Source of the DNA: a virus
Taxonomy: Duplodnaviria > Caudoviricetes
Length of the DNA: 64,000 bases
Reading direction: 5' to 3' (one strand)
Virus record (IMG/VR): IMGVR_UViG_3300028888_000052
Below, piece by piece: positions 6,831 to 59,334 of this stretch; within the stretch, counting starts at the first letter, position 1, and each line of letters opens with the position of its first letter. Under the pieces are notes generated by a model, which saw only the letters and a list, made by a program, of their open reading frames with translations, was not told the origin of the DNA and ran no database searches. Position numbers and translations under genes: made by a program.

Positions 6831-7847
6831 ATGAGAAATTTTACACAATTATTTGAATCAGCTAAGACAACTGATAAACAACCAGGAAATGATTTGCAAA
6901 ATACTGGTGTAACTAACCATTATACACCAATAGAAAATGTATTAACAAATATTAAAAATCTTTTCTGTAGTAGATTAGGAGTAGTTGCTTCAATTGGTGA
7001 AGATAATGTTTCAATTAAATTACAAAGTACAAAATTTGTAGATGAACAATCAATTAATGCTGTATTATATGAACAATTAGATAGATTTACTAATTTGGCA
7101 AATTATATAATGCAACAAGGTTTAGATAAGATGACTAAAATAAATCTTGGTATGTATTATGTTGTATATTTTTCACCAAGTGATGTAAAAACTGCTAAAG
7201 ACCCTCAAACTATGGAGCCAAATGCTATTTTAGTTCCTAAAGAAGTTAAAGAATCTATATTAGATGAATTTGAATTCACCACAATAATTAAAGAAGATGA
7301 TGCAGAAGAAGAAATAAAGGATGTTACTTTAGAAAAAGTTCTTGAACTTGTTGATTCAAAAGATAAAGTTAAAGCCGCTAAACAATTAGAATTATTAGTT
7401 GCTCAAGAAATTGAATTACCAAGAGAATTTTATTTTGCCGGCATTAAATTCAAGAATGGTGAAGAAGCTATAGCACTTCGTTGGAAATATACTAAGAAGC
7501 TTCCAACCGGACAATCAACTGAATCTGTACGTTCTATTATGCACATATTTGGTAAAGGAGATAAAGCTATTTGGGTACAAGATTTTGATAAAGAATCTAT
7601 TGTTCAATTACCAGAAGAAGTTAAGAAACTTATTGAATCAATACTTGATATGTTAGAAGCAGACAAGACTGATGATCCAGCTATCTTCAAACTTACAGGT
7701 GAACGTAAAGAACGTGAAGATAATAAGGATAAAAATGAGGAAGATAAAGATAAAGACTCCAAAGATGAAGATTCAAAAGATAAAAACTCAAACAACGATG
7801 ATGATGAGGATGATGATTCAAGAGGAGACAATTCAGATGATGTATAA
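6831..7847 (+). CDS. Putative head/core protein (tag MRNFTQLFE) with acidic low-complexity tail
   Basis: Tag-like N-terminus, internal V/I-x-E sites, D/E/K-rich C-terminus. Confidence 0.5.
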   Translation: MRNFTQLFESAKTTDKQPGNDLQNTGVTNHYTPIENVLTNIKNLFCSRLGVVASIGEDNVSIKLQSTKFVDEQSINAVLYEQLDRFTNLANYIMQQGLDKMTKINLGMYYVVYFSPSDVKTAKDPQTMEPNAILVPKEVKESILDEFEFTTIIKEDDAEEEIKDVTLEKVLELVDSKDKVKAAKQLELLVAQEIELPREFYFAGIKFKNGEEAIALRWKYTKKLPTGQSTESVRSIMHIFGKGDKAIWVQDFDKESIVQLPEEVKKLIESILDMLEADKTDDPAIFKLTGERKEREDNKDKNEEDKDKDSKDEDSKDKNSNNDDDEDDDSRGDNSDDV

Positions 7848-56031: not shown

Positions 56032-56736
56032 ATGATAGAGTGGAATAAATATTTTGACCATATATACTGTATTCATTATAAACCTCATGTTGAAAGATTT
56101 GATGAATTAAATGAAGAATTAAAAAGGGTTAGAATATTAGATTCAGGTATATTTGAGTATTTCTATAGTGATGTAGATAAGACAAAATATAAAATACCAG
56201 CTAATAAAGTTACAATACATCACAAAAGATGTATTTTAGATGCTTTAAGTAATAAATATGATAGAATATTGATTTTAGAGAATGATATAAGATTCTTGAA
56301 AGATTTATCTATTATGAAAAAATATTTAGAGCAAATACCTAAAGATGCTGATATGGTATGGTTTGATTATATATATGGATATGAATTATCTGAAATTGAT
56401 AGATATAAAAAATTAGATAAAGATTCTCTATATATAAATGTTGGACATGAAAATAGAATATTTTCTGCCGCTTGTTATATGTGTTCTAATCAAATGCAAA
56501 GACATTTGCTTGAATGCTATTCAAGATATCAAACCACCCCGGATTATTTTACTTGGTACAATCCTTTTGCACCTGACCAATTTAGAGATAAATTATTAAA
56601 TAGGTACATTGTAAATAAGAATATTGCTATTCAAAAGGTATTTGATGATAATCTTAGAGCTACATTACATGGAGAAAATAATACATATAAAAGATATACA
56701 TATCAAGGTTTAAATTTGGAAGACTATAATATTTAG
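56032..56736 (+). CDS. Glycosyltransferase family 25-like
   Basis: FDHIYCIH....ER, H...I.DAL..KYDRILILENDI.F, D.DMV, SAACY. Confidence 0.75.
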   Translation: MIEWNKYFDHIYCIHYKPHVERFDELNEELKRVRILDSGIFEYFYSDVDKTKYKIPANKVTIHHKRCILDALSNKYDRILILENDIRFLKDLSIMKKYLEQIPKDADMVWFDYIYGYELSEIDRYKKLDKDSLYINVGHENRIFSAACYMCSNQMQRHLLECYSRYQTTPDYFTWYNPFAPDQFRDKLLNRYIVNKNIAIQKVFDDNLRATLHGENNTYKRYTYQGLNLEDYNI

Positions 56737-56783
56737 TCTTCCATTTATTTTTTAAATGATTTTAACATAAATTTTTTATATAA

Positions 56784-56825
56784 TATTTGAAAAAATAATT
56801 TTTGTTTCTATATTATATATGTAAA
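56784..56825 (+). promoter_or_regulatory. Repeated early promoter driving the micro-ORF string
   Basis: tatttgaa-N16-ctatattatatatgtaa, followed by an A-rich leader and ATG at 56845. Confidence 0.8.
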
Positions 56826-56844
56826 ACAAATAAAAATAAAAACA

Positions 56845-56889
56845 ATGAATAAAAGAAACAAACCCCCGCCCACCCAAATAGATTTATAG
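56845..56889 (+). CDS. Micro-ORF MNKRNKPPPTQIDL
   Basis: First ATG after the promoter, at a typical distance; CCC CCG CCC codons. Confidence 0.5.
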   Translation: MNKRNKPPPTQIDL

Positions 56890-56939
56890 ATAATGATAAT
56901 GAATTTGAATATATTAATGAATCTTAAATAATTTGAAAC

Positions 56940-56966
56940 ATGATAAAATCTAGAGATCGACCCTGA
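56940..56966 (+). CDS. Micro-ORF MIKSRDRP
   Basis: A-rich context; GC-rich codons; ends Pro-stop. Confidence 0.4.
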   Translation: MIKSRDRP

Positions 56967-57009
56967 TTAAGATATATATGATATAAATTGATGATAATTA
57001 TTAGAATAA

Positions 57010-57084
57010 ATGAAAAAAACTAACGAAGGAGATAGAAAATCCGGTGGAAAGTTTTCCAAATATTTGGTTTTAGATCCACCTTAA
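57010..57084 (+). CDS. Micro-ORF MKKTNEGDRKSGGKFSKYLVLDPP
   Basis: Ends Asp-Pro-Pro-stop. Confidence 0.45.
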   Translation: MKKTNEGDRKSGGKFSKYLVLDPP

Positions 57085-57098
57085 TAAAGTCCACAACT

Positions 57099-57122
57099 AT
57101 GGCACGAGCATCCCCCAAATAA
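57099..57122 (+). CDS. Micro-ORF MARASPK
   Basis: GC-rich island in AT-rich DNA; RASP motif. Confidence 0.4.
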   Translation: MARASPK

Positions 57123-57175
57123 AATAAAATATTTTTTAATTCTAAATTGTACTTAAACTATTTTATAAATATAAT

Positions 57176-57403
57176 AAGAGACGAGAATTATGTTGTGAAA
57201 CATACGTCTTTGTATCACCACATTAGACAATATATCCAAGAGTTATATAGATGGCGCTACTAAATACCGGACATTCTCGATTAGCGAAGGCGTTTGCCAT
57301 CAATAATCATTTATGAGATCTGCATGGAGATACGGTCGCAACCAAGTTTAGTTGAGGAATATTAATGGTGATTTTGATGAGGACTCATAAGAGTCCTCTT
57401 TTT
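57176..57403 (+). ncRNA. Putative structured non-coding RNA (~225 nt), family unknown
   Basis: No long ORF, elevated GC, upstream ctattttataaat element, several helices incl. a GNRA-capped stem, own terminator. Confidence 0.65.
57379..57403 (+). terminator. Intrinsic terminator
   Basis: gaggactc-ataa-gagtcctc-ttttt. Confidence 0.9.
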
Positions 57404-57459: not shown

Positions 57460-59334
57460 ATGACATCAGACGTAATTATAAGTAGAGAAATTATTGAAAA
57501 TAACATAAAAGATTGGGTATTCGAAAAAATTAGTGAGAAATTTGAATTTAGACAACACCAATTAGAATGTATTGTTAATATTATTGATAATATCCTTTCT
57601 CATGGTAATCACAATTATGTGGTTGAGGCTCCTACCGGTTCTGGTAAATCTTTAATTAATATAATAGCTGCTGGAGTTTTGGCAGATTATTGGGATATTA
57701 CTTCATATATTCTTGTTTCAGATTTATTTTTATGGGAACAGTATTCTGATTTCTTAGTAAAGCATAAGAAAACAGGAATTGCTATGCTTAAAGGTAAGAT
57801 AGGTAATTATAAGTGTATGCTTAATGGTGAAGATATTACTTTAGCAGATTGTACACTTTCTGGTTTATCTTGGGCCTCTATGTATAATTTAAACACAATC
57901 AAAGAATATGGATATGATTGTGCTCATTCATGTCAATATGTTAAAGCACGTAAAAAAGCAGTTAAGTCTAAAGTTTGTTTAATGACATATCAGTTATTTA
58001 TACAAACATTCAAGATGATTAACCCAGATGATAATAATCCATACCAATTCAAATATCGTGATGTGATATTCTGTGATGAGTGTCATAATATTCCAAGTAT
58101 TGTAGAACAAAGAGTACATGCTCATATTAAAGAAAAAGATCTTAAAACTTTATTGGAAATTTATGATTATGTAAATAATAAAGAATTAGATTTATTTGAA
58201 AATCTTGAAGAGGATCAATCTAGTAAACCATTTATAAATATGACCCGTCAAGATGTTATAAATGAATTTAATGAATGTTGGAAAGTATTAAGTAATCCAG
58301 AATCACGAAAAGATGAAGATATGATATATCGAGAAAGATATGATGTATTGATTCAAAAATTCGTGCCAGTATGTGATGATATTAGAAATAAGATTACTTT
58401 AATGAAGAAATCTAAACAACACTTATCTAAAGAGGATTTGCATATGTTTAGTATTTCTAATTGGTTTTGGGATTATGCCCTTGAATTTGGTGAATATTGT
58501 GGACTTATTTCATTTTGTGGTAAAGAATATCAATTAAAAGAAATTGCTCCTGATAATAGAAAAGAAGAAGGTCCTGTTTGTACTTTTAGATGCCTTAAAG
58601 AAGATTATTTAGTGTATAAATATTTGTTAACAAAAGCTCAATGGAGAGTTATGTTATCTGCTACTATTGGTGGTCATGAGGCATTTGATGAGAATATGGG
58701 ATTTACTTATACAGAAGATCAAAAATCTTTAATGGAAGTTATACCTTCAACTTTTGATTTTACTGAGTCACCAGTTCATTTCTTGAATAAATTCAAAATG
58801 TCATTGAAAGAACGTGATATTTCATTTGGTCATCTCAAGACAGTTATATATTCTATTTGTAATACCAAATTTAAAAATCAAAGAGGAATGATACAAACAG
58901 GATCTTATGATATTGCAAAAAGATTATATGACCAAGCACCATTAGAAATAAAACAAAGAATGTTGGTTTATAATGGGTCAAGAGAAAAGAACACGATGAT
59001 TAAAATTCATCAAATGTCAGATAATACAATATTGGTTGGACCTACATTGAATGAAGGTATTGATTTACCAGGTGATGAATGTAGATTTATTATCATTATG
59101 AAAGTCCCATATCCAAGTCTTGGTGATAGATATGTAAAAGAGAAAATCAAGTTTTATCCCTTATGGTATAATTCAACAACATCTAATGAAATTATCCAAG
59201 GTATTGGTAGAGGAGTAAGATTTGATGGTGATTGGTGTGTCACATATATATTTGATGCTTGTTTCTGGAATTTATATTGTTCCACTAAAGAGCAATATTC
59301 ACAAGAACTCCAAGATAGAATTAACATAATTTAA
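57460..59334 (+). CDS. DinG/XPD-like SF2 helicase
   Basis: Q motif FRQHQ, EAPTGSGKS, KG..NY.C and Cys cluster, DECH, LSAT, EGIDLPGDECRFIII.KVPYP, QGIGRGVR...DW. Confidence 0.9.
   Translation: MTSDVIISREIIENNIKDWVFEKISEKFEFRQHQLECIVNIIDNILSHGNHNYVVEAPTGSGKSLINIIAAGVLADYWDITSYILVSDLFLWEQYSDFLVKHKKTGIAMLKGKIGNYKCMLNGEDITLADCTLSGLSWASMYNLNTIKEYGYDCAHSCQYVKARKKAVKSKVCLMTYQLFIQTFKMINPDDNNPYQFKYRDVIFCDECHNIPSIVEQRVHAHIKEKDLKTLLEIYDYVNNKELDLFENLEEDQSSKPFINMTRQDVINEFNECWKVLSNPESRKDEDMIYRERYDVLIQKFVPVCDDIRNKITLMKKSKQHLSKEDLHMFSISNWFWDYALEFGEYCGLISFCGKEYQLKEIAPDNRKEEGPVCTFRCLKEDYLVYKYLLTKAQWRVMLSATIGGHEAFDENMGFTYTEDQKSLMEVIPSTFDFTESPVHFLNKFKMSLKERDISFGHLKTVIYSICNTKFKNQRGMIQTGSYDIAKRLYDQAPLEIKQRMLVYNGSREKNTMIKIHQMSDNTILVGPTLNEGIDLPGDECRFIIIMKVPYPSLGDRYVKEKIKFYPLWYNSTTSNEIIQGIGRGVRFDGDWCVTYIFDACFWNLYCSTKEQYSQELQDRINII

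Follow-up and report, generated by a model that had tools for sequence, protein, structure and literature searches.

What does a phage keep in an interval in which no gene is called? The question is raised by a 724-nt gap between a glucosyltransferase-like gene and a Rad3/XPD-like DNA helicase gene in an AT-rich phage (28% G+C, ~137 kb) from rumen metagenomes, identical copies of which are present on JGI and ENA contigs. We analysed 64,000 nt of this genome (the window). A preliminary description of the gap proposed that a full early promoter is followed not by a normal gene but by a string of proline-motif micro-ORFs resembling ribosome-stalling peptides, which gene callers would miss. The gap is indeed without a called gene in every public copy of the phage, and all five proposed frames (starting at 56845, 56893, 56940, 57010 and 57099) are confirmed. 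The proposed string holds in part: the PPP, RDRP-stop and MARASP frames (types A, B and C; Table 1) are conserved, but neither the 24-codon frame nor MIMNLNILMNLK is a conserved gene.

Table 1. Features in and around the gap, with the arrays and accompanying elements of related phages; coordinates refer to the window unless a contig is named.
Feature	Position	Strand	Description
Glucosyltransferase-like gene	56032-56736		5' neighbour of the gap
Terminator-like hairpin	56717..56743	+	Closes the glucosyltransferase-like gene; 5' edge of the inserted cassette
Early promoter	56786..56821	+	TTTGAA 56786-91, CTATATT 56808-14, TAnnTATG box 56814-21
Type A	56845..56889	+	MNKRNKPPPTQIDL-stop; pattern M..[K/R]PPP; relatives MENNKPPP-stop, MEVRPPP-stop
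Spacer frame	56893..56931	+	MIMNLNILMNLK-stop; begins with ATGATAAT; not conserved as peptide
Type B	56940..56966	+	MIKSRDRP-stop (TGA); pattern M[I/L](K[S/A])RDRP-stop; relatives MLKARDRP-stop (TAA), MIRDRP-stop (two)
24-codon frame	57010-57084	+	Overlies the RNA hairpin; not a conserved gene
RNA hairpin	57043..57080	+	GGUGGA 57043-48 pairs with UCCACC 57075-80; within the 24-codon frame
AAGTCCA motif	57087..57093	+	5-6 nt (14 in one copy) 5' of type C starts
Type C	57099..57122	+	MARASPK-stop; relatives MARASP-stop (n=6), MARASPVI-stop (n=1)
Structured RNA with intrinsic terminator	57176..57403	+	Terminator stem 57379-57398; separate module ending the transcript
Rad3/XPD-like DNA helicase gene	57460-59334		3' neighbour of the gap
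Structured RNA in relatives	L014:2715-2945; L025:408-635		~225 nt
AAAATCCCAA..ACGTTACAAAA element	L019:2620-2690; L178:1355-1425; L110 near 7330-7400; L180:1845-1900	minus in L110	Absent from the window
L019			Helicase 74% identical to the window's; MENNKPPP-stop, MLKARDRP-stop, MARASPVI-stop, MARASP-stop
L178, L179			Helicase 87% identical to that of L019; MENNKPPP-stop, MLKARDRP-stop, MARASP-stop, MARASP-stop
L110 (157 kb)			Helicase 59% identical to the window's; MEVRPPP-stop; three ~95-nt units, MIRD-stop (decayed), MIRDRP-stop, MIRDRP-stop
L029 (217-kb phage)			Unrelated locus beside tRNA genes; MTRPPP.., MARASP-stop
L180			Helicase 72% identical to that of L019; decayed type B copy

The promoter has the Bacteroidota-type -33/-7 geometry. 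It is one of ten copies of TTTGAA-N16-CTATATT on the + strand of the window, against 0.33 expected, which bears out its description as a full early promoter. The spacing between the two elements is exactly 16 nt in all ten. The other nine copies have their first ATG at +53 to +67, where it starts an ordinary gene of 84-135 amino acids, whereas at the copy at 56786 the ATG at +59 starts a 14-codon frame instead. This type A ATG thus has the position of the first-gene ATGs elsewhere, and the start contexts of the micro-ORFs fall between the 34th and 66th percentile of true starts.

The conserved micro-ORFs have 6-14 codons and are rich in Arg and Pro; the canonical forms of A, B and C have 6-8. 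Their Arg/Pro codons had been described as uncommon in this genome, and counts over the window's long ORFs agree: among 14,306 codons, CCC is found 5 times (5/416, 1% of Pro), CCG 11 times (3% of Pro), CGA 27 times (6% of Arg) and TCC 15 times (2% of Ser). The three short frames alone hold four CCC codons, and the terminal Pro codon of the micro-ORFs is always CCY. The CCC, CCG, CGA and TCC codons are also rare in the genes of the relatives. Codon bias in the window is extreme, CGG being one of 425 Arg codons.

Within the window, 30 of 1,687 micro-ORFs end in Pro, which is not beyond chance; the PPP frame is unique. The case therefore rests on conservation in relatives. These were gathered with the helicase as handle, L019 by BLAST and L178 and L179 through helicase homologues, which makes the last three an unbiased set. 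Most phages related by helicase have no gap 5' of it and no array, and the family that does is small, comprising four or five lineages. In L019, L178 and L179 the units stand in one common order, A, B, C, C.

In type A the ATG lies in frame, 3-5 codons 5' of PPP; the first Pro codon varies between CCC, CCA and CCT, and the following CCG CCC is invariant. The window's copy has its stop after PPP replaced, so that five extra codons bring it to 14, compared with 7-8 in relatives. Type B copies differ by CGA/AGA, ATA/ATT and GCT/GCA, by the stop codon, which interchanges between TGA and TAA, and by an in-frame indel of exactly 6 nt, or two codons. MARASP shows no amino-acid change in eight copies, although synonymous variation is found in four of its five non-Met codons (CGA/AGA, GCA/GCT/GCC, TCC/TCG, CCC/CCT). 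The three peptides, otherwise unrelated, have in common a length of 6-8 residues, rare codons and a basic residue 1-3 positions before the terminal Pro. A direct Pro-stop is found in most copies of the relatives and, in the window, in type B only; the window's types A and C run on to PPPTQIDL-stop and SPK-stop, and one relative copy continues for 60 codons. Pro-stop is thus not obligatory, nor can it be the whole story.

The alignments allowed a coding test. Between L019 and L178, 7 of 101 micro-ORF columns differ and all seven differences are synonymous (P ~ 3e-5 to 5e-4 for randomly placed changes). Elsewhere in the gap, 90 of 533 columns differ, with 27 further gap columns, a divergence 2.5-fold that of the micro-ORFs. 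Over all unit comparisons the ATG frame shows nine synonymous and three conservative changes (K/R, I/L, S/A), against 0-3 synonymous and 5-10 non-synonymous changes in each of the other five frames. Paralogues within one phage (C1 and C2 of L178; the MIRDRP copies of L110) show synonymous differences only, within unrelated flanks. The L029 instance came from a pattern search restricted to synonymous change; it enters the counts as one event, and the result stands without it. Substitutions gathered at the synonymous sites of one frame, in-frame indels and maintained starts and stops are what a protein-coding micro-gene under purifying selection presents. The expectation that peptide rather than nucleotide sequence would be conserved in related phages is thus met by PPP, RDRP-stop and MARASP, and fails for the 24-codon and MIMNLNILMNLK frames.

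Judged from these alignments, purifying selection maintains the type A, B and C peptides in several uncultured phages of the rumen, representing four lineages or more, and these micro-ORFs are probably both translated and selected. That the peptide sequence is kept by selection suggests translated minigenes acting on the ribosome. A junk or decaying spacer with ORFs that arose by chance, for which the commonness of Pro-ending frames in the window (30/1,687) and the lack of conservation in two of the five frames might be cited, is barely credible for A, B and C: synonymous-only conservation across phages with helicases only 59-74% identical, and a substitution rate 2.5-fold below that of the spacers, already contradict it.

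Could the same words be conserved without translation? The short C-rich segments CCGCCC, GATCGACCC and GCNTCCCC might be RNA or DNA recognition sites, such as protein or Rho sites, sRNA seeds or origin-like iterons beside the helicase gene. Some synonymous positions are in fact invariant (CCG CCC; GAT CGA CCC), which could point to a constraint on the nucleotides and not on the choice of codon; the non-coding AAGTCCA motif and a hairpin are conserved alongside, L110 carries three ~95-nt direct repeats in an AT-rich tract, and GATC lies inside type B. Untranslated sites, however, leave unexplained the in-frame ATG at variable distance, the stop kept through a TGA/TAA change, the 6-nt indel, and variation limited to the synonymous sites of one frame, and the minus-strand frame has no start and is broken by a 1-nt indel. 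We regard recognition sites as very unlikely. A minus-strand protein over type C was rejected for these last two features, its start not being conserved, and a DnaA-box or origin reading of AAGTCCACA was rejected because its CACA part is not conserved.

None of the patches themselves folds stably (MFE 0 to -4 kcal/mol, z >= 0), and the whole 578-nt transcript folds with z = -1.6, too little to convince. A stable fold with compensatory changes is found only at 57043-57080 and not in A, B or C. The stop context of the micro-ORFs, UAAU, is not weak. Stop-codon reassignment was considered and discarded: it would fuse only the first ORF and the spacer ORF before a TAA, and the neighbouring genes are normal in code 11.

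The two remaining frames had been counted as members of the array. At positions equivalent to the MIMNLNILMNLK frame, relatives read MIIIFINNLN-stop, MIFVNNLN-stop and MI-stop, so the peptide is not conserved and its membership falls. The 24-codon frame, proposed as a stalling peptide ending DPP-stop, loses its ATG in relatives (ACA in L178, ACG in L179); what is conserved there instead is the RNA hairpin, whose 6-bp stem carries two compensatory pairs between the window and L019/L178. The ATGATAAT word recurs ~41-47 nt 5' of type B units, at 56893-56900 and 56981-56988 in the window and in four copies in L110, one of which reads ATG ATA TAG, the two-codon form as in lambda barI.

The structured RNA downstream is 80-87% conserved in relatives, with an invariant core (..AAATACCGGACATTCTCG.. 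/ ..CTGCATGGAGATACGGTCGCAACCAAG..) and compensatory changes in the closing stem and terminator; a shortened form lies 3' of the arrays in L019, L178 and L110. In L014 as well as in the window, a word resembling a T4 late promoter, TATAAATA, stands just 5' of this RNA. No array is present in the two closest relatives, L014 and L025, whose helicases are 92% and 90% identical to the window's; of the gap they keep only the structured RNA, which follows the glucosyltransferase-like gene immediately in L014 and a 67-codon ORF in L025. Compared with these two, the promoter and micro-ORF block (~56744-57157) therefore represents an insertion or a deletion, and the array is not needed for the structured RNA. 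The content of the slot between the glucosyltransferase-like gene and this RNA differs between phages: nothing in L014 (2685-2700), the 67-codon ORF in L025 (150-400) and the cassette in the window (56744-57157), a pattern that, from these comparisons, is moron-like turnover. The array is a movable module whose units duplicate, decay and move; type B is present three times in L110, and type C twice in L019, L178, L179 and L029.

These comparisons bear on whether pausing ribosomes control, in cis, read-through, Rho access or the stability of the downstream RNA or helicase message, in the manner of TnaC, MgtL or the two-codon axe-txe minigene. In the window, L019, L178, L179 and L110, the array is indeed flanked by an early promoter or gene on one side and by the structured RNA and helicase on the other, its C-rich, G-poor and unstructured patches resemble Rho loading sites, and a natural minigene acting in cis is documented (PMC8708949). 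Yet L014 and L025 have the structured RNA and helicase without the array, and most helicase relatives lack the array altogether; type C also occurs at an unrelated locus, 5' of a lipoprotein gene in the 217-kb phage; the units are duplicated and shuffled; and there is no alternative terminator or antiterminator pairing 3' of the ORFs. We consider a cis leader quite unlikely, and the suggested control of the downstream non-coding RNA is unlikely as an obligatory role.

Further searches gave little more. Rfam yielded no family at the gathering threshold over the whole window, and a sensitive scan of the gap gave chance-level matches only; ARAGORN found no tRNA or tmRNA in the window. In viral contigs, the upstream gene used as handle recovered no relatives, an exact 25-mer of the structured RNA had no match, and the MARASP-stop pattern matched only L029 and three unrelated contexts. 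The 15-mer AGAGATCGACCCTRA was set aside there, its at least 111 matches being, apart from L110, chance occurrences inside GC-richer genes, and the type C pattern in bacterial genomes was likewise taken as chance (19 matches, all in GC-rich taxa and none in Bacteroidota). The cultured-phage collection returned AT-rich spacer noise only.

Several other features of the relatives were seen. In four lineages the arrays are accompanied by a further non-coding element that is conserved, AAAATCCCAA .. ATAGGATAAAGTTCG .. ACGTTACAAAA. On the minus strand of L029 (1870-2650) lies a tRNA array in which a palindromic word, ..ATCATCATGTCGTGAGACAT.., precedes each tRNA-like gene; ARAGORN calls only two, one of them a tRNA-Phe with anticodon AAA. 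L002 / L018 (74 kb) encodes a helicase protein 77% identical in DNA visibly much richer in G+C than the window, which would mean a large compositional shift inside one phage group.

How might frames of this size act? Their common traits (length, a basic residue with Pro, rare codons, Pro-stop), together with the known effects of minigenes and proline, make action during their own translation most likely; the micro-ORFs would work while translated and not as ordinary proteins, and ribosomes may stall on them, or EF-P or rescue factors may be sequestered, as the preliminary description suggested. Rare Arg, Ser and Pro codons, PPP and Pro-stop would slow decoding and peptide release, and a nascent chain of 6-8 residues would be too short for anchoring in the exit tunnel. 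Ribosomes would be held, or peptidyl-tRNA, carrying the tRNA-Pro that reads CCY at the end, would drop off. Two net effects are conceivable: components of host translation could be drained away early in infection, or a parked ribosome could shield or modulate the transcript. We see even chances that A, B and C are translated minigenes under selection that act through slow decoding or release; the block 56786-57122 would then be an early-transcribed cassette of three independently translated minigenes and one small RNA hairpin, and this whole explanation, slow decoding or release included, is for us just as evenly balanced.

A codon-selective host shut-off seems rather improbable. In it, early and abundant minigene translation would trap host tRNAs for CCC, CCG, TCC/TCG and CGA, chiefly the tRNA-Pro reading CCY, either in short peptidyl-tRNAs or on ribosomes that are slow to terminate; host messages would be starved, and AT-rich phage messages, using other codons, would still be translated. 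Codon rarity was measured in phage genes, and the same codons may not be rare in the host.

The released hexa- to octapeptides (fMARASP, fMIRDRP, fM..KPPP) could instead be the active molecules, for instance by binding or inhibiting a protein of the host or the phage, or the ribosome tunnel. Short active peptides are known, among them the heptapeptide precursor of microcin C and the 23S rRNA pentapeptides. That all six MARASP residues are invariant in eight copies while codons vary fits free peptides equally well, and amplification of units (three B in L110; two C in four relatives) fits product dosage. No partner gene accompanies the array, however: the neighbouring genes differ between phages, and Pfam and PHROG searches of the array-flanking genes gave no family and no partner clue. 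Persistent use of the rarest codons would be unexpected if the product alone mattered, and the Arg/Pro end common to three unrelated peptides points to one ribosomal step. Free peptides are an unlikely reading.

If translated, frames of 6-8 codons would be among the smallest genes known under selection, and invisible to gene finders. Toxic minigenes have so far been seen as a lambda oddity in Pth-deficient hosts; the micro-ORFs would be a natural, evolutionarily maintained counterpart of laboratory toxic minigenes and would indicate a phage route to tune or hijack translation via proline, rare codons and termination. A literature search found minigenes, arrest peptides and proline effects, and no phage array of conserved proline-ending micro-genes.

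Comparison with known systems places action during translation more closely. In the RAPP/RAGP-type arrest peptides SecM, ApdA and ApdP (PMC7897499, PMC10951233, PMC12992588), as in the micro-ORFs, an Arg stands two or three residues ahead of a Pro at the C terminus, and R-A-S-P of type C is one residue from RAGP or RAPP. The active cores are RAPP, RGPP, RAPG and RAGP, with RDPP and RSPP partly permissive, and arrest needs an adjacent N-terminal segment, the motif alone being insufficient (PMC12992588). RASP, RDRP and [K/R]PPP fall outside these cores, only 1-4 residues precede the core where the tunnel segment should be, and what follows is a structured RNA and a DNA helicase gene, or in L029 a lipoprotein gene, and not a Sec/YidC localisation gene; the suggested RAPP/RAGP-like membership is thus not sustained. 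Attenuators of the pheL/hisL/mgtL type are not matched either, no stable structure or terminator being found within or after A, B and C.

TnaC ends in ..RP-stop. Type B, ending R-D-R-P-stop, resembles TnaC and PepNL (PMC11890864) as a small ORF in which the nascent peptide hinders the release factor; those peptides (24 and 14 aa) part-fill the tunnel and regulate a defined downstream gene, whereas here peptides of 6-8 aa of several types stand in a row with no fixed target. Polyproline needs EF-P (PMC12856214), and C-terminal Pro impairs termination (Hayes, Bose and Sauer 2002, as cited in PMC12856214). The PPP of type A and the Pro-stop of most relatives' copies recall these effects, which are general properties of proline within normal proteins and not dedicated phage micro-genes.

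Drop-off is possible for nascent chains shorter than ~7 aa, and tRNA is sequestered by lambda bar minigenes (PMC8012679); sequestration of tRNA that depends on length is also described for rare codons close to the start and for minigenes of 3-8 codons (PMC2490762). The likeness to lambda bar and engineered rare-codon minigenes lies in ORFs of a few codons, rare codons before the stop and AT-rich surroundings. Type B has 8 codons, type C 7 and the relatives' copies 6-8, each with its own start and stop within the ~2-8 codons of such minigenes (type A has 14 in the window), and CGA CCC, CCG CCC and TCC/TCG CCY before the end are rare by phage codon use, though host rarity may differ. The outcome expected of a bar-type minigene is peptidyl-tRNA drop-off with sequestration of the tRNA of the last sense codon, stronger below ~8 codons. 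Lambda bar, a two-codon AUG AUA UAA, offers no peptide for selection to act on and becomes toxic only under Pth limitation. Here, by contrast, three distinct peptides of 6-8 residues, under purifying selection and ending in Pro, stand in arrays, in Bacteroidota-type phages without Shine-Dalgarno signals. On our best reading, the micro-ORFs would be akin to lambda bar minigenes or to very short arrest peptides.
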